Shown one piece after another: positions 14,701-63,611 of a DNA stretch of 64,000 bases. Under the pieces are notes generated by a model. That model ran no database searches, was not told the DNA's origin, and saw only the letters and a list, made by a program, of their open reading frames with translations. This DNA comes from Escherichia phage vB_EcoP-101114UKE3. The first letter of the stretch is position 1, and the number at the start of each line of letters is the position of its first letter. The position numbers were made by a program, and so were the translations under genes. Location: the sequence record NC_070982.1; one strand, given 5' to 3'.

Positions 14701-14919
14701 ATGAAAATGATGAAACAGGTAACTTATGGTCTAGCTTGCTTAGGGACAGGTTTTGTGATTTCCACAGCAGTACCTGTAAATGCAGTAGGCTCTCATTCTA
14801 TTATAGAAGCTCCTGTAGAGAAGCTTAGTTCTCAATGTAAACAAAGGACCATTCAAAATAATTTGGTTGTTATTTGCCCAGACGCTCAATCTTCAGCTCT
14901 GAGAAAAATTCTTCCTTAA
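14701..14919 (+). CDS. Small protein with N-terminal signal peptide or membrane anchor (72 aa); holin-like candidate
   Basis: Hydrophobic N-terminus ending VNA; RBS AAAGGAGAAG; sits directly upstream of the lysozyme. Confidence 0.4.
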   Translation: MKMMKQVTYGLACLGTGFVISTAVPVNAVGSHSIIEAPVEKLSSQCKQRTIQNNLVVICPDAQSSALRKILP

Positions 14920-14952: not shown

Positions 14953-15444
14953 ATGGACGCTATCGCATTGCCGCCTATACAGATGAGCCTAAGTCCGGCT
15001 GGTATGGAGTTTATCATGAAGCATGAAGGCATGAGAACTAAAGCCTATAAAGACTCCGCTGGAATCTGGACTATATGTGTAGGGGCTACGCGCGATATGA
15101 ATGGGTATCCAGTAAGACAAGGATTAACGTATTCTATAGAGGATTGTCTAGCTCTGCTAGATAGAGACACACAAGACTCTGTTCGTGCTACTCAGAAAAA
15201 CATAAGAGTTCCTATGCTAGCTCATGAATTTGATGCTGTCACTTCTTTCAACTTTAATGTTGGTGGTGGTGCTTTGTCAGCTTCAAAACTTAGGAAAGTG
15301 ATCAACGGAGATGTGAAGGGTGATGTTTACTCAGAGTTCTTACGTTGGGATAAGATAACTGTTAAAGGTGTAAAGCAGCGGAGTCCGGGACTTCACAATC
15401 GCAGGGTTGCAGAAGCAAATCTATACACTACAGGAAAATATTAA
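14953..15444 (+). CDS. Lysozyme (GH24-like) (163 aa)
   Basis: Motifs KHEG, YKDSAG and WTICVG match the Glu/Asp/Thr catalytic pattern of T4-type lysozymes; RBS AAGGAGG. Confidence 0.75.
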   Translation: MDAIALPPIQMSLSPAGMEFIMKHEGMRTKAYKDSAGIWTICVGATRDMNGYPVRQGLTYSIEDCLALLDRDTQDSVRATQKNIRVPMLAHEFDAVTSFNFNVGGGALSASKLRKVINGDVKGDVYSEFLRWDKITVKGVKQRSPGLHNRRVAEANLYTTGKY

Positions 15445-32181: not shown

Positions 32182-32770
32182 AGAGTTCTCTCCGTGTCCG
32201 TACAACAATCCAGTTTAAATAATCTACTGCATCTTCTACAGTAGAATTATTCGCTAGGTAGTATGTATTTCTCTGACTACCTTCAATGTAGGAACGAGAA
32301 TCTCCTTTAAAATCACAACCTTCACGAATCACCTGAATTACCTGAACATGGAAATGTTTCTCTAGTTCTTCAACTTCGGCTTTGAACCCACCATCAGAGA
32401 AGACGATAACATCATTCTGTGATGGGATACGTTGTTGAATACTGCTAACAGCAAGTTTACCCATGCAGGTCTCACCAAACATAGGCTTCAGGTAATTCTC
32501 GCTAGTTGCAATCATCAAGTCTCGAACTGACTTACCGTCCCATTCAGGACGGCTATGTTCTTTCCACTCACGATCGTTGTACAGCTCCATGAACTCATAA
32601 AGAGGTAGACCTAATGCAGCAGCAGCCACTCGATACATAGGCTCCTTAAAAGCCTTTACATGAGGCCTAAACTCGGTGTTACCAAGTGTTTTCTCTAACC
32701 AAGAATTAGCGATTGTATCTTTACCACAACCCGGTGGTCCATTCAGAATTACTACTAATGGTTTACTCAT
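32174..32770 (-). CDS. P-loop kinase, deoxynucleoside monophosphate kinase-like (198 aa)
   Basis: N-terminal P-loop GPPGCGKDT. Confidence 0.5.
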   Translation of the reverse strand: MSKPLVVILNGPPGCGKDTIANSWLEKTLGNTEFRPHVKAFKEPMYRVAAAALGLPLYEFMELYNDREWKEHSRPEWDGKSVRDLMIATSENYLKPMFGETCMGKLAVSSIQQRIPSQNDVIVFSDGGFKAEVEELEKHFHVQVIQVIREGCDFKGDSRSYIEGSQRNTYYLANNSTVEDAVDYLNWIVVRTRRELYV

Positions 32771-33420
32771 TATTGAATCATCCCTTGAAGATCTTCTTTA
32801 TCAAAGTGCTTCTCTACTACCGCTTCATACAGATCACGATTCTCTGAATAACGACGATAGAAGGTTCCGTGTGAAATTCCCAACTCTTGCTGGATGTGAT
32901 CATGTGGGATGCCGAGAAAGAGCATTGAGAACATGCTTGCCATCTTACGGTTTTCCATAATGTCACTCAGGTCTTGGAAGAAGAAAAAGATTCTAGATTC
33001 CAAGAACGGGTCTCCAGTAGAATCATGCTTATCCATCGCAATCTCTAAAGGACTTTCCCATGAATTCATCTCAGGAGGTCTAAACATATCAGCCTCTGGA
33101 ATAGAGTAGATACGTCGGTCTCCAACTGTCTGGCGATTAGAACGAATCGACCAGATGATATTCTTGACACGATAAGTCATGTGCTCAATATCTTTTTCAT
33201 CAGTGAGCAGAAGTTCTTCTTGCTTTGCAAACACAAAACGCCAAGCGTTCAGTAATACTTCCTGAGCAACATCCTCTGCCTCGTGATAGTCTTTAATGTC
33301 ATACATAAAATACTTATGCACAACTTTCCAATTCTCTCGATAGAATTCATCGAAGGTTGGGTAGTACTTAATAGGTATGCCATGAATACGATAGCGTGTG
33401 GGTGTTGTCTTTTTCTTCAT
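32770..33420 (-). CDS. Sigma-70 family (ECF-like) sigma factor (216 aa)
   Basis: Region 2-like [15 protein letters not shown] and region 4-like [29 protein letters not shown]. Confidence 0.55.
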
Positions 33421-33444: not shown

Positions 33445-33669
33445 TTAAACTACACAGAATAAATACATTGCTGTTTCAGGGGAAGGTATGTGGTCACTAG
33501 GATATCTAACCCTAATCCACTCATCATCTTCTGCTACATAATAAGCCCAATAAGACCCATTTTCATTAATAAAGAACTTGAAGGTACAACCAAAGATTTG
33601 GTTATTGTGTTCCCATACTGCATGAAACTGAGTAACACCTTCTGGTATTGTAAGTTCCGCTCTGATCAT
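33445..33669 (-). CDS. Hypothetical protein (74 aa)
   Basis: ORF whose start overlaps the o-spanin stop. Confidence 0.4.
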   Translation of the reverse strand: MIRAELTIPEGVTQFHAVWEHNNQIFGCTFKFFINENGSYWAYYVAEDDEWIRVRYPSDHIPSPETAMYLFCVV

Positions 33670-33926
33670 TGTATTCCTCTCTCCTTTAGAGCTTTAAGCA
33701 AACCGTTGTGGTTAGCGGCACAGGTTGTATAAGTGTCCTGATACCACTCGAGTGTTGTTGCAAGTGCTACTCCCTGTCCACTCTGAAGTAAAGGGAGGTC
33801 TACATCACATTCAGCTTTTAGGTTTGTTGGTAAGGGCATTAGCTGCCTGCTGTTGTCGCTCGTTGAACAAGCTGACATACTCATCACTAGCACACACATT
33901 GTAAAAAACTGGCTTAGTCTTTTCAT
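33666..33926 (-). CDS. o-spanin candidate (Rz1-like outer-membrane lipoprotein, 86 aa)
   Basis: Signal peptide ending MSAC (lipobox-like), proline-rich mature part with Cys; embedded in the 3' end of the i-spanin gene in another frame. Confidence 0.5.
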   Translation of the reverse strand: MKRLSQFFTMCVLVMSMSACSTSDNSRQLMPLPTNLKAECDVDLPLLQSGQGVALATTLEWYQDTYTTCAANHNGLLKALKERGIQ

Positions 33927-34158
33927 AATGCATCTCTTTGTAAATAGTTTCCGTGTTCTTCTTCCAGTTAGATAAACCAGTCAGAACTTTCTGAGCCACT
34001 TCATCAGCAGCCTTAGCTCTCTCAACCTCAATCTCTTGCTGTTTCTTCTCATGGTCAAGAGCATTACTATCACTTCTGTATTGCTCAAACTTGACACCAC
34101 CAAAGAAAATAATAGCTGTGAAAATAAGAAAGCCTATATTGTTTTGAAGCTTTTCCAT
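33811..34158 (-). CDS. i-spanin candidate (Rz-like, about 115 aa)
   Basis: N-terminal transmembrane helix IGFLIFTAIIFFGGV followed by coiled-coil; ATG at 34158 with GGAG RBS. Confidence 0.5.
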   Translation of the reverse strand: MEKLQNNIGFLIFTAIIFFGGVKFEQYRSDSNALDHEKKQQEIEVERAKAADEVAQKVLTGLSNWKKNTETIYKEMHYEKTKPVFYNVCASDEYVSLFNERQQQAANALTNKPKS

Positions 34159-34171
34159 TTTAACTCCAACG

Positions 34172-34197
34172 AAAAAAGCCACCCGAAGGTGGCTAAG
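34172..34197 (-). terminator. Rho-independent terminator with UUCG loop (minus strand)
   Basis: Minus-strand RNA reads AGCCACC-UUCG-GGUGGCU followed by UUUUUU. Confidence 0.5.
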
Positions 34198-35096: not shown

Positions 35097-35372
35097 ATAT
35101 GGTATAGCTAGTAAAGCTATTGCAGGCTTGTATATTGGGCAATCATTGTAACCCTTGCAAGTACCGAAGGGCAGGAGACACCTGCGAGATAAAATAGAGA
35201 ATTAAGGAAATCCTTGATTTAGGTTGTAGGGACTCCTAGGGACTTTGATTCTCTATTTAAAAGAATATTAATTACTTACTACCTAAATAATTAACTAACT
35301 TACTTAAACCAAACTCAAGAATAATAGATAAAAAGATTATTCCTAAGAAAGCTAAAAAGTAAAGGATATAAG

Positions 35373-35993
35373 TTACCATTCAAGTAAACCTTTAAAGTTA
35401 GTTTGTTCTACTATCCTCTGATAAGGTAAGTTAGATTCTGCTTGTTTGCTTAACACCTCTTGTACTTTATCAGTAATTGAATAATCTTTTTGTAATAAAG
35501 AAGCTACCCACTCTTTCCTACTTTCCAGTTCTTTTCTAATCTCTTGCAGAGACACAGCTCTGTAATCAATTTGTTCCATAGAAGTACAGAAGTATCTCCA
35601 ATCTCTGATAGTAGAATTATGAGTATGAGCATAGATATTATACTTTCCTCTCATTTCATCAGAGTGAATAGGAATATGAGTTACCCAAAACTCTTTGTAC
35701 TTATAATCACCACTGATGTGTCTAAAGACTTTCATCATATCAGGGAGAAGTTCTAATCTGTCATGGTTTCCTAAGACAAGATGTTTCTCTCCTTTTACTT
35801 CAGCGATAATATCAAGTGCATATTTCTCAAACACCCAATCACCTGTAAAGAAAGTTTTATCACGTTTAGTAACATGGTCAAACGCTGCTAAGATAGCTTT
35901 GTCGTGTTCTTCAATACTACTAAACTTCTTCCTAAAGTTACAGATGTTACGATGGCCTAGGTGACCATCACCTGCAAAATAAACTTCAGCCAT
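35373..35993 (-). CDS. Calcineurin-like metallophosphoesterase (206 aa)
   Basis: GDGHLGH and GNHD motifs. Confidence 0.6.
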   Translation of the reverse strand: MAEVYFAGDGHLGHRNICNFRKKFSSIEEHDKAILAAFDHVTKRDKTFFTGDWVFEKYALDIIAEVKGEKHLVLGNHDRLELLPDMMKVFRHISGDYKYKEFWVTHIPIHSDEMRGKYNIYAHTHNSTIRDWRYFCTSMEQIDYRAVSLQEIRKELESRKEWVASLLQKDYSITDKVQEVLSKQAESNLPYQRIVEQTNFKGLLEW

Positions 35994-36767: not shown

Positions 36768-36900
36768 AATATCCAGAGTTGTAGTTTAGGGCGCATTTCT
36801 CGGCCTCTTCTATGTCGTCTGTGTTTAGGATATTAACCCAACCACCAACTTCATCAAAACCCTCTTCTACCTCATTGAACCACACGCTGTATTTCTTCAT
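36721..36900 (-). CDS. Small hypothetical protein (59 aa), paralog of 35986..36153
   Basis: Starts MKKYSVWFNEVEEG; shared GW-x-IL-x-TDD-x-EEAE motif. Confidence 0.35.
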   Translation of the reverse strand: MKKYSVWFNEVEEGFDEVGGWVNILNTDDIEEAEKCALNYNSGYYERNWEHDEILQSSL

Positions 36901-37072
36901 CTTGATAAGACCCTTCCCCAATCCTTGATGTAACATCGACCATCAACCCACTTGGTCTCTGATTTAAACTTTTGAGAGATTCTTGTTTCACAGTCTTCTT
37001 TACTGTAATCACCAAGAGCATCCATCACCCAAAGAAACAGAGCAATTACAATAGACCAGATTAGAAACTTCT

Positions 37073-37465
37073 TCATCGTATCACCAGAGGCTCTTCAGAG
37101 TACACAGGAGAGGTTATTTCTACCGGAGGTGCTGCTCTAAGGTCATTAAGCCTTACGCCCTTCAGCATACCATCTAGGTGGTCCATTTTAGGGATACCTA
37201 CAGGGAAGTCATCAATCCAAACATCCACAAAGAAACCCAAGCTCTGAGTGACGGAATCCTTCTGAACACCATTGCAAAAGATAACAGGAATATCTAGACT
37301 TGCTGCATCTGCTAGAAGCTCCTCATTTGAATACCCATTAGGTTGAGCAAAACGATAGGTGACAATACGTACATCATGTCCACGAGATTTCATAAGACCT
37401 ACAATGTGGGTCCACATCTCTTTGTCCACTGTAAAAGTGTCATCATAATCTAAACCAATATTCAT
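37073..37465 (-). CDS. HAD-like hydrolase, possible nucleotidase (130 aa)
   Basis: N-terminal motif I IGLDYDDTFT (DxDxT). Confidence 0.45.
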   Translation of the reverse strand: MNIGLDYDDTFTVDKEMWTHIVGLMKSRGHDVRIVTYRFAQPNGYSNEELLADAASLDIPVIFCNGVQKDSVTQSLGFFVDVWIDDFPVGIPKMDHLDGMLKGVRLNDLRAAPPVEITSPVYSEEPLVIR

Positions 37466-44136: not shown

Positions 44137-44352
44137 TTAGTAATGAATCTTTTTATAAATCAGGTTGCTTCCACTTTCTGTTTCAATCCCTTTCTGGATT
44201 GTAATCTTAGAAGCACCGGTATTAGCAATTTTTAAAGCTCGTTTAAAGCGGCGAGCCTCTCTCCGTGTTGTGTATGAGGAGAAGCTAGGGATTGTACTAT
44301 CAAAATTAAACCACTTAACTACCCAAAAAGTAATCCAAGGTTTCTTTTCCAT
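44137..44352 (-). CDS. Small hypothetical protein (71 aa), member of a three-gene paralog family
   Basis: Shares W-x-W...TRREAR...KITI-x-K...Y-x-K-x-HY with 46217..46432 and 46432..46629. Confidence 0.45.
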   Translation of the reverse strand: MEKKPWITFWVVKWFNFDSTIPSFSSYTTRREARRFKRALKIANTGASKITIQKGIETESGSNLIYKKIHY

Positions 44353-44353
44353 A

Positions 44354-44629
44354 TTAAATACCTTTCAGAGCTGTATCTAAAAACGCACGGAGGTTTGATT
44401 CAGTTTGCATACCGGACAAGCTGTAGTGAGCACCACTGTTCATGTTAGGAACCACAAAGGCTGGGATACTGCGAACACCATATTCAATGGCTCGCTCTCG
44501 ACCATTACCTTCAGAGATATTTACTTCTTCAACTTCTACGTTGTAATCAGCTACAACTTTCTTAAACACAGGAGCCATAGCTGCACACGGAGCACAGGAA
44601 TTACTATAAAACTTAATTACTTTACTCAT
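44354..44629 (-). CDS. Thioredoxin-like protein with CAPC active site (91 aa)
   Basis: FYSNSCAPCAAMAPVFKKV resembles the thioredoxin WCGPC region; ATG at 44629 with AAGGA RBS. Confidence 0.6.
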   Translation of the reverse strand: MSKVIKFYSNSCAPCAAMAPVFKKVVADYNVEVEEVNISEGNGRERAIEYGVRSIPAFVVPNMNSGAHYSLSGMQTESNLRAFLDTALKGI

Positions 44630-44819
44630 TTTATTCCTTGTTAATAAACAGATTGATATGACGTTGGGTAGCAGGAACAACAATAAAAGATTTATACTGA
44701 CCTTTTGCTAAGTCATGAGCAATCTTCTTTGTCTGACTAAGACCCATTACACAGCCACTAACAATAATAGCATGTGCTTGTAGCTCTTCAGGTAGGTTTA
44801 GTTTCACTCTTTGGGTTCC

Positions 44820-45005
44820 TTATAGCATACAAAGAATAATAACAAGAGGTAGTGTTATAGCAAAATGTACCAGAACAACACTACCTAGCTTGATAGCTTT
44901 AACATCCTCTTCTGCTGGGTTTTCTTTAATTGCTAAATTTCGAGCTTTATATATAACAGTACCAACTATTAACGACCACACGGCCCACACAATCAGTGAA
45001 ATCAT
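44820..45005 (-). CDS. Small two-TM membrane protein (61 aa), tandem paralog of 45015..45194
   Basis: Two hydrophobic helices flanking a KENP-containing loop. Confidence 0.4.
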   Translation of the reverse strand: MISLIVWAVWSLIVGTVIYKARNLAIKENPAEEDVKAIKLGSVVLVHFAITLPLVIILCML

Positions 45006-45014
45006 ATCAAACCC

Positions 45015-45194
45015 TTATGCAGTCAACAGGTGGAGAAGGAAAGGAATGACAACAGAGAAGACTACCAGAGCAATGCTGCCATGTTTAATGGGTTTAGCGT
45101 CATTCGGGTTCTCTTTAAGCATCTGTTTCTGAGCTACATAAACGATACCGCCAACAAAAATTGCCCATACAGACCATACGATTGCTGAAAACAT
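45015..45194 (-). CDS. Small two-TM membrane protein (59 aa), tandem paralog of 44820..45005
   Basis: ATG at 45194 with AAGGA RBS; same helix-LKENP-helix layout. Confidence 0.4.
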   Translation of the reverse strand: MFSAIVWSVWAIFVGGIVYVAQKQMLKENPNDAKPIKHGSIALVVFSVVIPFLLHLLTA

Positions 45195-45257
45195 ACTCAT
45201 ATCCTTATAAAGAAGTTCGCCCCACCTCTTGAACAAAGAGACAGGGCGGAGGTTTGA

Positions 45258-45824
45258 TTAGTAAGACACATCACCACTGGAGTGGGACATGTTGCTCTTG
45301 ACGAAGTAACAGAACTTGCCAAGACCTTCATTAATTTCTTGAAGCATACTCTGGTCCACTGGATAGGTGCACAAGTCTGAATCAAACTCATCCATCTTCT
45401 CAATGATACACATAAGAGTCATGCACATGTCGGAAAGCATACCGTCCATGTCAAGATCAGCGTTACCTTCTCGGAACCAAGCATGACCTAAATAATTACT
45501 AGCAGTAGCATCCACTTTAACACAATGAAAGCGCATACGCTCTGCTATTCGGTCGCCTGCCTCACGAGCATAATCTTCTAGTTCATCGAACATACCATGA
45601 ACACCTTGGAAACCAGCTCCAGAGACGTTCCAGTGGTAGTTCTTTGCTTTGATGTGTAGAAGTTCAAGGTTAGCTTGCACACCACACAAGATGTGTTCTA
45701 AGCTGTTACCGCTAATCAGTTTATTCATTCCCTCAAGACGAGAGATAGAAGAGTCAGTAGCAGAGAATGGGTTGCTAGAACCCACTCGTGTTAGTTCTGG
45801 TAAGTCGAAGACATTATTATGCAT
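45258..45824 (-). CDS. Dps-like ferritin-fold protein (188 aa)
   Basis: KNYHWNVSGAGFQGVHGMFDELEDYAREAGDRIAERM matches the Dps pattern HW-x-V-x-G-x-F...H...F-x-E...D-x-IAER. Confidence 0.65.
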   Translation of the reverse strand: MHNNVFDLPELTRVGSSNPFSATDSSISRLEGMNKLISGNSLEHILCGVQANLELLHIKAKNYHWNVSGAGFQGVHGMFDELEDYAREAGDRIAERMRFHCVKVDATASNYLGHAWFREGNADLDMDGMLSDMCMTLMCIIEKMDEFDSDLCTYPVDQSMLQEINEGLGKFCYFVKSNMSHSSGDVSY

Positions 45825-46146
45825 TAGGTGCATCCCCTTCTAAGTTAGTTGAATTAGCTACATTACGAGCAATGTTATCCATGACCTGCTGTGTAATAAC
45901 AATGCAATTCTGAGGGTCTACTGATTTAGAACGCCCCATCTCAGGGTCATAGACTTTGACTCGCTTGGCTGTTGAGCCAGTAACTTGCAACACTTTGAGA
46001 AGATAGCCTTGGTTTCCAATAGACCATGCAACAACATCACGATTCTTGATATAACGACCAAGCATGTCACGATGATAGAACTGCTGCATAACTTTAGCTT
46101 TGCTAATCTCTTCAGATGGCGGGGCCACTTTACTCAAATCTAACAT
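45817..46146 (-). CDS. Hypothetical protein (109 aa)
   Basis: ATG at 46146 with AGGAGAG RBS; a near-copy of the TAATGTATA element lies about 40 nt upstream. Confidence 0.4.
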   Translation of the reverse strand: MLDLSKVAPPSEEISKAKVMQQFYHRDMLGRYIKNRDVVAWSIGNQGYLLKVLQVTGSTAKRVKVYDPEMGRSKSVDPQNCIVITQQVMDNIARNVANSTNLEGDAPNA

Positions 46147-46216
46147 AACTCTCTCCTGTTTCATACAATATTCTTATACTGTATATACATTTGAGAGTTA
46201 TCATATCTACTACCAA

Positions 46217-46432
46217 CTAGTAATAAACCTTGCTGGATATGAATCCAGCACTGTTATGGATATTTTCAATCCAACGATGAATCTCCACCTTTTCAGCGAT
46301 TCCTAAAGCTTTTGTAGCTTTTATAGTTTTCTTAGCAAGACGAGCCTCTTGTCTTGTGTTGAATAATTGAATACAATCACCACCAAGAGCTTTGTTAGCC
46401 CATTTAGTACGAACTGCCCATAATTTATCCAT
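46217..46432 (-). CDS. Small hypothetical protein (71 aa), paralog family member
   Basis: NTRQEAR and SSKVYY motifs shared with 44137..44352 and 46432..46629. Confidence 0.45.
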   Translation of the reverse strand: MDKLWAVRTKWANKALGGDCIQLFNTRQEARLAKKTIKATKALGIAEKVEIHRWIENIHNSAGFISSKVYY

Positions 46433-46629
46433 TAGTAATGTACCTTTCCGCTGATATAGAAACGACCTGATTTAAAGTCTTGAGCTTTGTGGATAGTGAT
46501 CTTATTAATTGTGCTTTCACAACTTAATAAGAACTTCTTATGAGCGCGAGCTTCTTGACGGGTATTCCTAATACCCATTGACTCTGTACCACTGCTCCAG
46601 TGAATACGAACTACCCAACGTCTTTTCAT
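46432..46629 (-). CDS. Small hypothetical protein (65 aa), paralog family member
   Basis: ATG at 46629 with GTGGAG RBS; NTRQEAR...ITIHK...SGKVHY. Confidence 0.45.
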   Translation of the reverse strand: MKRRWVVRIHWSSGTESMGIRNTRQEARAHKKFLLSCESTINKITIHKAQDFKSGRFYISGKVHY

Positions 46630-46643
46630 TGTTCCAAACTCCA

Positions 46644-46835
46644 CTATCTGTCAACCGATTTAGGGACAAACTGCATTACACAGACCTGACTACGAGGGAG
46701 ATTTATTTCACAAGCGGCTCTTCTCGTCTCAATCTTAACGCTAGAATCTGGACCAACGTTAGATATAAATACTCCCATAGCAAATGCCCCAACTACAAAA
46801 CCTATAGCTAAGTAAGTAGCTTTTTCTTCTTTCAT
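46644..46835 (-). CDS. Small membrane protein (63 aa)
   Basis: N-terminal hydrophobic helix; weak RBS. Confidence 0.35.
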   Translation of the reverse strand: MKEEKATYLAIGFVVGAFAMGVFISNVGPDSSVKIETRRAACEINLPRSQVCVMQFVPKSVDR

Positions 46836-46840
46836 CTTGG

Positions 46841-47374
46841 TTATACACCCTTAGATGCAACTACACCATTACTGCCGTTGTATCGACCCTTCACTGCATA
46901 AGAGTCATCACCAGCGTGAGAGTGTTCGAACATAACCATTTGACCAACACGCATCCCAGCACGAACTCGTAAGCTATGATTATGGGTAACGTTATGAAAT
47001 TCAAAGGTTAGTTTACTGCTGTTAAACCCTGCATCAGCCCAACCAGCATGGAGGTGGTTTAAACCACAACGAGCCATTGAGGAGCGAAGTACAAACAGGC
47101 TTGAGATGTTATCTGGAAGGTTAAACTCTTCCATTGAGTGCGCTAAGAAGAATTGCCCCGGAGTGATAACAATACCATCTTCAGGGATTTTTACTTCTTT
47201 CCACTTGAGGTTTTCTTTAGCATCAATGTCAACAATTCCGTCAGCCTGTTCTTCAACAAGGATAGTATCACCAATACGGATATCCACGCTAGCAGCGTTA
47301 ACATATTTATGCTCCGCATCTAAAAAGCCATTATCAATAACGCTGTGTAATTCTTGAGAACCTAAAAGACTCAT
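46841..47374 (-). CDS. dcd: dCTP deaminase / dUTPase-family enzyme (177 aa)
   Basis: SSMARCGL and GWADAGFNSSKLTFEF blocks typical of the dCTP deaminase family. Confidence 0.7.
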   Translation of the reverse strand: MSLLGSQELHSVIDNGFLDAEHKYVNAASVDIRIGDTILVEEQADGIVDIDAKENLKWKEVKIPEDGIVITPGQFFLAHSMEEFNLPDNISSLFVLRSSMARCGLNHLHAGWADAGFNSSKLTFEFHNVTHNHSLRVRAGMRVGQMVMFEHSHAGDDSYAVKGRYNGSNGVVASKGV

Positions 47375-51818: not shown

Positions 51819-52016
51819 TTACCTTTTGTTTAAAATTTCTTTTGTACAAGAAGTCCCGTTACACACGAGAACTGTTTGAGTTATAGAATCGACAACTGTT
51901 ACATGGCTGCCGCATTGAGTTATGATTTGACCTCTCCCTGAATCTTTAGAGATGCATTCATCAGCGGCGATCGCTGACACACTGAATAAGGAGAGGAAAA
52001 ATAGAATCTTTTTCAT
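51819..52016 (-). CDS. Small secreted cysteine-rich protein (65 aa)
   Basis: Signal peptide MKKILFFLSLFSVSAIA followed by about 48 residues with 4 Cys. Confidence 0.45.
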   Translation of the reverse strand: MKKILFFLSLFSVSAIAADECISKDSGRGQIITQCGSHVTVVDSITQTVLVCNGTSCTKEILNKR

Positions 52017-61463: not shown

Positions 61464-61826
61464 TTACTCTGCTACCAAAAGGCTCAGAGATTTGCGAATG
61501 TAGTCAATACTACGGAAGTTTCGATAGTTCTCTTGGAAGCGCATTTTTTCAAACTCTGCTTCCTGAAGCTCTACCTCTGCTGCTTTATATCCTGATAAAG
61601 CTAAACTTACCACATCCTGAGGTAAGGTATTACGACGGCGAATAAGATATTTATTCGCTTTTAGTTTACCTTGTGCACGAGCCATTTTGGCCTTTGCCGC
61701 CTTGATACCATGAGAAATCCAAAGCAGTTGCTGTTTCAGATCTTCCTCATCCATACCACCTAAATCATTTGCTACTTTATGCAGCGTAGACAGGTTCACA
61801 TGGCCTTTAATGGGGCGTAGGTTCAT
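61464..61826 (-). CDS. Hypothetical coiled-coil protein (120 aa)
   Basis: Start overlaps the stop of an upstream small ORF (ATGA). Confidence 0.45.
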   Translation of the reverse strand: MNLRPIKGHVNLSTLHKVANDLGGMDEEDLKQQLLWISHGIKAAKAKMARAQGKLKANKYLIRRRNTLPQDVVSLALSGYKAAEVELQEAEFEKMRFQENYRNFRSIDYIRKSLSLLVAE

Positions 61827-61990
61827 AACTTCTCCTGTTTGTCACATTGATTGGTTAGCCAGTTGTAAGACCCACTGTTGTTCTTGCTTAACTCGCAAGA
61901 TGCAAAAGAGTACATCCTGACAAACCCCACAGTGGCTAAGCAAATAAAGATTGCTGCCAATAAGAATTTAGCTTTCAACTTATTATCCAT
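61823..61990 (-). CDS. Small membrane or secreted protein (55 aa)
   Basis: ATG at 61990 with AGAAGAGG RBS; hydrophobic N-terminus KFLLAAIFICLATVGFV; below the ORF-track cutoff. Confidence 0.35.
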   Translation of the reverse strand: MDNKLKAKFLLAAIFICLATVGFVRMYSFASCELSKNNSGSYNWLTNQCDKQEKL

Positions 61991-63353: not shown

Positions 63354-63611
63354 TCAGTAGAAGGTGTGTGTAGAGTCGTCGTTCATAGATAACCAAACGA
63401 AGAAGACAATCACACAGAAAGCAATAATACCGAGAGTTGCAAGGATTATAGTGTTAGCTAATGTGATATCTAACACGCTTTGCAGATATATAAAGAACTG
63501 TACGACACCACATACCATCAGCACAACCCCAACGACAATGAGGAGCCAATATGTGCAGAGAAGGACTGCATCTAATAGTGATACATACTTTGGATGATCT
63601 TTATGTCTCAC
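63354..63611 (-). CDS. Small membrane protein with two hydrophobic helices (85 aa)
   Basis: Hydrophobic stretches LLCTYWLLIVVGVVLMVCGVV and IILATLGIIAFCVIVFFVWL; apparent GTG start. Confidence 0.35.
   Translation of the reverse strand: MRHKDHPKYVSLLDAVLLCTYWLLIVVGVVLMVCGVVQFFIYLQSVLDITLANTIILATLGIIAFCVIVFFVWLSMNDDSTHTFY

Follow-up and report, generated by a model that had tools for sequence, protein, structure and literature searches.

The locus considered here raises the question of what two adjacent, very short membrane proteins do for the phage that encodes them, and whether they act as a holin and antiholin or serve a purpose other than lysis. The window, which means the whole analysed stretch of 64,000 nucleotides, comes from Escherichia phage vB_EcoP-101114UKE3 (NC_070982.1). 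The 4 kb surrounding the locus are 100% identical to those of Escherichia phage vB_EcoP-101114BS3 and 86–99% identical to those of IME267, Bas87, ECBP2, KBNP1711 and other Kuravirus/Gordonclarkvirinae podophages, and by sequence comparison the window belongs to a Kuravirus, that is, a phiEco32-like phage of E. coli. Kuraviruses are recurrent therapeutic candidates against pathogenic E. coli, and roughly two in three of their genes lack a known function. The locus is compact and tractable, as it combines a universal, fast-diverging hairpin protein with a nearly invariant paralogue that hops among genomes. Few small phage membrane proteins have been characterised so far, and assigning a role to a tail-less hairpin of 59 residues would add to their number. 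Work on the two proteins would also help to decide if the "holin" of kuraviruses, annotated by position, is named correctly.

The two genes occupy positions 44820–45194, exactly where the original prediction placed them, as two minus-strand open reading frames that are both annotated as CDSs in the identical GenBank record MZ234015.1. Gene A (45015..45194, minus strand) encodes a protein of 59 amino acids beginning with MFSAIVW (MFSAIVWSVWAIFVGGIVYVAQKQMLKENPNDAKPIKHGSIALVVFSVVIPFLLHLLTA), and gene B (44820..45005, minus strand) encodes a protein of 61 amino acids (MISLIVWAVWSLIVGTVIYKARNLAIKENPAEEDVKAIKLGSVVLVHFAITLPLVIILCML). The Shine-Dalgarno sequence of A, AAGGA (45202..45206, minus strand), lies 7 nt 5' of the ATG at 45194 and is kept in all aligned relatives. 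A second in-frame ATG is found upstream at 45200, where it is too near the Shine-Dalgarno sequence, and it is not conserved among the relatives. The resulting MSM start occurs only in some of the genomes that carry the allele of A seen in the window (A1); ECBP2, SU7, KBNP1711 and E20-1 have no upstream Met. The MSM extension brings no extra charge, and its distance from the Shine-Dalgarno sequence makes the second ATG the better start, so that A does not show the dual-start motif of lambda-type holins, in which two conserved starts give a longer product with an extra positive charge. The Shine-Dalgarno sequence of B, AAGGG (45012..45016, minus strand), is located 6 nt 5' of the B ATG and overlaps the stop codon TAA of A (45017..45015). 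This overlap suggests that A and B are translationally coupled, and alignment of the B-carrying relatives shows that the junction is kept.

A and B share one reading frame, and the spacer at 45003..45017 (minus strand) reads TAA followed by GGG TTT GAT (stop-GFD). A read-through product of A and B would be a topologically consistent protein with four transmembrane segments. Read-through gains no independent support from the junction, which is invariant in all B-carrying relatives, and TAA-G is not a leaky context.

The two products are related to each other. BLASTP aligned A and B with 26/58 identities (45%) at an E-value of 3e-17, and both proteins match the same PHROG family (phrog_9296); by sequence, the similarity is far past chance and marks them as paralogues, which bears out the earlier description of two paralogous small proteins with two transmembrane segments each. 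Recent gene conversion between A and B was considered as the origin of their common KENP loop, and it was not supported, as the synonymous sites differ in the DNA.

Each protein has two hydrophobic stretches, at about residues 2–21 and 41–59, with Kyte-Doolittle means of 2.0–2.8 taken over 17–19 residues. The polar loop of about 17 residues between them contains all charged residues except one His per protein. N- and C-terminal tails are absent from both proteins; A ends in IPFLLHLLTA and B in LPLVIILCML, and past residue 40 neither carries any charge apart from its one His. AlphaFold2, run on a family alignment of 6 sequences, placed helices at residues 2–28 and 30–58 of A with a one-residue break at N29 (mean pLDDT 90.3, pTM 0.66). 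The topology check that the original prediction had proposed thus points to two predicted membrane segments in each protein and a modelled hairpin. The BFVD model of the B homologue from O18-011 superimposes on the model of A with a TM score of 0.86. Since the modelled break falls at N29, the conserved KENP would form the turn of a tight helical hairpin, and both A and B are modelled as two-TM hairpins that turn at a conserved E-(N/T)-P. The N/T-P followed by an acidic residue can be read as a typical helix N-cap.

The loop was said to contain a conserved LKENP motif, and this was accurate for A alone. The motif takes the form (L/I)KENP in the window, with LKENP in A and IKENP in B, and it is IEETP in the phiEco32-type allele, which leaves E-x-P as the only invariant part. 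The residues that do not vary between the three sequence types are M1, S3, I5, V6, W7, W10, G15, Y19, A21, E28, P30, I36, S40, V44, P51 and L56. Many of them follow an i+4 spacing within each helix (S3, W7, G15 and Y19 in the first; I36, S40 and V44 in the second), while E28 and P30 form the turn. A small-xxx-small motif, (A/S)11-xxx-G15, lies among the conserved residues. Together, the i+4 invariants and the small-xxx-small motif point to a conserved helix-packing face in this family.

The orientation in the membrane was predicted from hydropathy, the number of Lys and Arg residues, and the AlphaFold2 model. The loop contains about 3–5 Lys or Arg residues and the termini contain none, which by the positive-inside rule would put the loop in the cytoplasm and both ends in the periplasm (N-out/C-out). 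The loop of the phiEco32-type allele has a slightly negative net charge, which makes the predicted topology less certain. In the modelled arrangement, the only exposed surface of A and B is a short cytoplasmic knob.

The original prediction leaned towards a holin or antiholin partly on the ground that the window contained no other confidently identified holin. This point was contradicted by the lysis genes found elsewhere. A protein of 72 amino acids annotated as a holin (14701..14919, plus strand; phrog_11161, E 1e-40) is encoded directly upstream of a lysozyme-type endolysin (14953..15444, plus strand), with which it forms a pair, and it is called a holin in the Kuravirus literature (PMC9965538, PMC4281155, PMC7881722, PMC12733307). 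The spanins form a second, separate pair, consisting of an i-spanin of 123 amino acids (33811..34182, minus strand) and an overlapping o-spanin of 86 amino acids (33666..33926, minus strand) with a lipobox ending in SMSAC (PMC6139136). They are located in the middle region, adjoining the homologue of the gp36 sigma factor (32770..33420) and a long way from the endolysin. Lysis in this phage draws on genes from two transcription classes.

The annotation of the 72-aa protein as a holin rests on gene position only. The protein has a single weak N-terminal hydrophobic segment rich in G, A, S and T, with a maximum Kyte-Doolittle value of about 1.7, which is preceded by an MKMMKQ n-region and followed by a signal-peptidase-like VNA|VG site. 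Judged by its sequence, it resembles a holin no more than it resembles a periplasmic part of 43 amino acids with two Cys residues behind a signal peptide or SAR domain. Because the annotation is positional and the segment weak, a residual probability is kept for a real holin elsewhere in the genome. In addition, the endolysin has no hydrophobic N-terminal SAR or signal segment in a by-eye reading of its sequence, which means that a true holin is needed.

A could be that holin, either the real one or a second one, with B as its antiholin or co-holin; the pair would then be a hole former of two transmembrane domains resembling class II holins and encoded apart from the endolysin. Several features favour this reading. 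A and B are the only proteins of the window with two strong transmembrane segments, the lysis genes are scattered already, as the position of the spanins shows, and Ser, Thr, Gly or His occurs in both helices. In the general definition of Young and co-workers, a holin is small and has one or more transmembrane domains, which applies to A and B. The same definition includes a hydrophilic, highly charged C-terminal domain, and this is missing, as both proteins end inside a membrane helix. It also includes clustering with the endolysin and late expression, whereas the genes of A and B are separated from the endolysin by about 30 kb, lie on the strand opposite to it, do not adjoin the spanins and belong to an operon of the middle class (PMC8948821), their timing being taken by homology with phiEco32. 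Neither protein matched a described holin family in Pfam, PHROGs or NCBIfam at E <= 1. The MSM double start, besides being charge-neutral, is missing in most relatives.

Comparison with known holins leads in the same direction. Class II holins and pinholins, such as S68 of phage 21, and the lambda-type pairs are small two-TM proteins like A and B, and a related pair could in principle represent an effector and its inhibitor. Unlike class II holins, A and B have no charged cytoplasmic C-terminal tail, their predicted N-out/C-out topology is the reverse, and their endolysin is distant. A holin role for the pair is consequently unlikely, and A and B are probably not a lysis-timing holin. The structural part of the original prediction stands, while its argument towards a holin fails, as the window has a holin by position and A and B lack several hallmarks of holins. 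The non-lytic options that it also named, namely superinfection exclusion and membrane modulation, are now likelier than a holin and antiholin. A more radical version would make A a true holin that founds a new class, tail-less and N-out/C-out, encoded in the middle operon and throttled by a leaky terminator, with B as an optional antiholin or timing modifier and the 72-aa protein as a secreted or SAR-type regulator; this has only a slim chance of being correct.

The expression of the two genes can be assessed from their surroundings. The locus is part of a leftward block of genes for replication and nucleotide metabolism. Upstream of A, on the same minus strand, are the homologue of phi32_68 at the head of the operon (45817..46146) and a gene for a Dps-like DNA-binding protein (45258..45824). 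Downstream of B, also on the minus strand, are an accessory gene with a GTG start that encodes 58 amino acids (44631..44807; phrog_19504) and travels with B, and a gene for a thioredoxin-like protein (44354..44629). The transcription unit would accordingly run from the phi32_68 homologue through Dps, an RNA hairpin, A, B, the 58-aa gene and thioredoxin, and on to ThyX. In MZ234015, the annotated product of the 58-aa gene is cut down to 38 amino acids.

In phiEco32, promoters of the gp36 sigma factor, with the middle/late consensus tAATGTAtA, have been mapped before genes 6, 13, 26, 40, 58 and 68, and the block of genes 25–68 belongs to the middle class (PMC8948821, PMC4281155). A promoter element, AAATGTATA (46184..46192, minus strand), which matches this consensus at 8/9 positions, is found 38 nt upstream of the phi32_68 homologue. 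By analogy with phiEco32, A and B would be made in the middle phase of infection from a gp36-sigma promoter. A scan of the region for sigma-70 promoters returned fewer matches than shuffled controls and was set aside. No weight was given to the promoters in the annotations of 4E8 and SU7 either, which seem to have been predicted by computer.

The spacer of 63 nt between Dps and A contains a terminator-like RNA hairpin (45218..45248, minus strand) of 13 bp with 7 G-C pairs, followed by AACUUCUUUA. It has a minimum free energy of -18.1 kcal/mol with a z-score of -1.9. A consensus stem of 11 bp is shared by 8 relatives, and the hairpin is kept in all relatives that were examined. O18-011 and Bas93 have a variant with a different stem, in which a by-eye reading finds full pairing restored through changed pairs and a better U-tract. 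Given this conserved hairpin between Dps and A, A and B are probably made by read-through, and their expression is probably damped relative to that of Dps. Four terminators were reported for phage SU10, and the hairpin between Dps and A is not among them.

Low, attenuated expression behind such a hairpin would suit a potentially toxic protein, and it can be cited for a further explanation, in which the hairpin proteins self-assemble into a viroporin-like channel or leak that partly depolarises or re-tunes the inner membrane in mid-infection. Such a leak might shut down host transport or motility, or block a secondary DNA entry that depends on the membrane potential. The (A/S)11-xxx-G15 motif and the invariant i+4 face would suit tight helix packing or oligomerisation, and the shape of the model resembles ring-forming hairpins such as the c subunits of ATP synthase. 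Against this, the helices contain no conserved polar or charged residue that could line a pore, and the His of the second helix differs in position between the proteins. A channel of this type is doubtful, and it is given a small share of belief.

The likeness to subunit c of the F-type ATP synthase concerns form. That subunit is likewise a tail-less transmembrane hairpin; its cytoplasmic loop is short and polar and contains a proline, and its helix 2 has a Pro as well. When the model of A was searched against the PDB with Foldseek, subunit c entries dominated the top of the results, with TM scores up to 0.80 at E-values of 0.8 or higher. Relatedness to subunit c was rejected, as hhalign against E. 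coli AtpE gave a probability of 0.2 and neither helix contains an acidic residue. The notion that A and B are carboxylate-less mimics of subunit c that poison the host c-ring is even less likely than a new class of holin.

How widely the proteins occur was examined with several searches. The profile of phrog_9296 matches A at an E-value of 3e-32, covering residues 3–61 of the 61-aa form and profile positions 1–59 of 59, and it matches B over its full length at 2.3e-30. This is the family of phi32_66 from phiEco32, and PHROGs gives it no function label. Among the families compared, membership has been established for phrog_9296/phi32_66 only, on profile matches. The closest known protein, phi32_66, is like A and B in its family, its position between Dps and thioredoxin, its length and its hairpin anatomy; phiEco32 has one copy, whereas the window has two. 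With tblastn, the family was found at 139 places in 96 phage records, all of them from Escherichia or Shigella phages, a count that includes some genomes twice as GenBank and RefSeq copies. A Dps-like neighbour at >=80% identity was likewise found in 96 records, and the slot directly 3' of the Dps-like gene holds a copy of A in 96/96. This position is the same in phiEco32, NJ01, Bas87, Bas89, Bas93, EP335, Paul, O18-011, SU7, 4E8 and E20-1. Occupancy of the slot throughout these genomes is one more point in favour of a holin, and it would fit other housekeeping roles as well.

Wider searches added little. Among 1.84 billion cluster representatives, an exhaustive HMM search returned 4 real members and 3 spurious long repeat proteins, a word-indexed search for distant homologues returned 4 proteins, and a search of IMG/VR returned three contigs with no new family members. 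In the related but more distant C3 phages SE131, A24, 3H10_20 and BUCT695 (Grimontviridae), the Dps gene is present with no transmembrane hairpin beside it. Pfam, NCBIfam and PADLOC gave no real match for A or B, the sole Pfam match being a spurious one of 13 bits to Insulin_TMD. The family profile found no match among PDB sequences, and fold searches, Foldseek included, gave generic hairpins only. In the literature, homologues of phi32_66 are described no further than as "hypothetical" or as having "two TM helices". To judge from these searches, the phi32_66 family is an orphan innovation restricted to the Kuravirus-like lineage.

The very short length of the frames and the lack of a known domain could also mean that they are non-functional remnants or annotation noise. 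Their products were not detected by proteomics of SU10 virions and lysates, and a published list of 63 core Kuravirus proteins includes thioredoxin and Dps and leaves out the A homologue (YF01 47175..47354; PMC9965538, Supplementary Table S4). Paralogue splitting or the calling of small ORFs probably accounts for the omission from this list, which was made with Roary and Prokka, and proteomics routinely misses small hydrophobic proteins. Moreover, the frames, starts and Shine-Dalgarno sequences are conserved over the 96 genomes, the AlphaFold2 model is confident, and the ratios of nonsynonymous to synonymous polymorphism are low, at 0.2–0.3, with many synonymous changes. The noise explanation is scarcely credible.

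The slot of A is occupied by one of two alleles, A1, which is present in the window, or A2, which is represented by phi32_66 of phiEco32 and has the loop IEETPDKKGEIQTAS. A1 and A2 are 52% identical, the ends of the helices being nearly identical and the loops rewritten. B follows A in 43/96 records, 33 of which encode the identical B protein. The other 53 records have a single copy and no B, which excludes an obligatory pair of holin and antiholin. All four combinations have been seen, that is, A1 or A2 and each with or without B; phiEco32 itself has A2 alone and the window has A1 and B. Of the K-12-infecting BASEL phages with this locus, Bas87 and Bas88 carry A1 and B, and Bas89 and Bas93 carry A2 alone. 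The pN/pS ratios are 0.20 for A1 (pS 0.22), 0.29 for A2 (pS 0.33) and 0.29 for B (pS 0.055), and all three are under purifying selection. From this distribution, the pair of A and B represents an optional state of the locus rather than a fixed two-component system.

The local pattern of divergence differs between the two genes. In comparison with O18-011, which carries A2 and B, the DNA identities are 81.8% for the gp68 homologue, 77.4% for Dps, 62.2% for A, 99.5% for B, 94.4% for the 58-aa gene and 75.7% for thioredoxin. The corresponding values for NJ01, which also carries A2 and B, are 82.4%, 77.6%, 60.6%, 91.4%, 93.8% and 72.1%. A is the most divergent gene locally in both comparisons, with 60–62% DNA identity versus 72–82% in the flanks. 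The cassette of B and the 58-aa gene (44631..45005, minus strand) shows DNA identities of 91–100% for B and 94% for the 58-aa gene with O18-011, NJ01, SU7 and KBNP1711, whereas the flanks in these phages are mostly 60–93% identical; SU7 is higher, and its upstream flank is near-identical. The excess of identity in the cassette over that of the flanks indicates that B and the 58-aa gene are a recently exchanged accessory cassette. By sequence, B is an accessory duplicate, and it passes from phage to phage together with the 58-aa gene. B is missing from E20-1 and EP335, which do have the 58-aa gene.

This combination of a fast-evolving loop, two very different alleles at one locus and an accessory paralogue that spreads horizontally could also mean that A and B bind and neutralise membrane-embedded effectors or sensors of abortive infection, with A1, A2 and B as specificity variants. 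Against the defence systems tested, Gordonclarkvirinae show unusual resistance (PMC11990801). That resistance concerns restriction-modification systems, which are cytoplasmic, neither protein has a PADLOC-related or known anti-defence match, and the literature searched gives no example of a two-TM hairpin with such a role. An anti-defence function is therefore improbable on present evidence.

A conserved core, a fast-evolving loop and a mobile paralogue are features that favour genes of interaction or competition over housekeeping genes. The explanation preferred here, tentatively and with a chance somewhat short of even, is that A and B are non-lytic modulators of the inner membrane, for example an Imm-like superinfection factor or a factor of host interaction. 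They would act within the inner membrane as small-protein modulators, without lysis, and may bind a membrane component of the host or of an incoming phage through helix-helix contacts and through the short, fast-evolving knob in the cytoplasm. They would be produced in mid-infection, at a level damped by the RNA hairpin and with A and B coupled. That the window has a holin-endolysin pair and a spanin pair apart from A and B was counted in favour of this non-lytic reading. The presence of A in all 96 genomes counts against it, as this would fit a housekeeping role too, lysis timing being one example.

The closest analogy for such a modulator would be superinfection immunity of the T4 Imm type, or else a factor of host takeover or host interaction. 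The inner-membrane protein T4 Imm is small, has two predicted membrane segments and is made before the late genes, and the imm gene is embedded among genes for nucleotide metabolism and replication in a virulent coliphage. A and B broadly resemble Imm in their size, their place in the membrane, their timing class and the setting of their genes, a likeness that is one of analogy only. They differ from it in being shorter and tail-less, and they have no sequence similarity to it; the profile Imm_superinfect (PF14373) was not among the Pfam matches of A or B at E <= 1. No report of superinfection exclusion in kuraviruses was found in the papers retrieved.

A and B had already been deposited as hypothetical proteins. 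New here are their paralogy and three-allele structure, the universal slot as opposed to the mobile cassette, the hairpin model, and the context of operon and attenuator. The locus represents a well-defined orphan family, and it holds no surprising finding.

Other small genes of the window may be considered beside A and B. Five further small ORFs with a hydrophobic segment, all on the minus strand, are located at 35272..35379, 36897..37076, 51819..52016, 61823..61990 and 63354..63518, and they encode 35, 59, 65, 55 and 54 amino acids, respectively. In two of the five, an N-terminal anchor or signal precedes two or more Cys residues. All five are further candidates for a role in exclusion or in the regulation of lysis.

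The region of the operon has also undergone recurrent duplication of small genes. Three copies of small paralogues of phrog_4939 (70–71 amino acids) flank the operon at 44137..44352, 46217..46432 and 46432..46644, all on the minus strand. They share ends of the form TRxEAR...K(I/V)(H/Y)Y, and their pairwise BLASTP E-values range from 2e-9 to 6e-5. Lastly, two misannotations in public records concern the neighbours of A and B. The Dps/ferritin-like protein is called an "integrase" in several Kuravirus records (e.g., locus L001, MZ234015.1, 3259..3825), and in E20-1 the thioredoxin-like gene beside the A/B locus is called a "holin" (locus L002, OP293233.1, 2704..2979).
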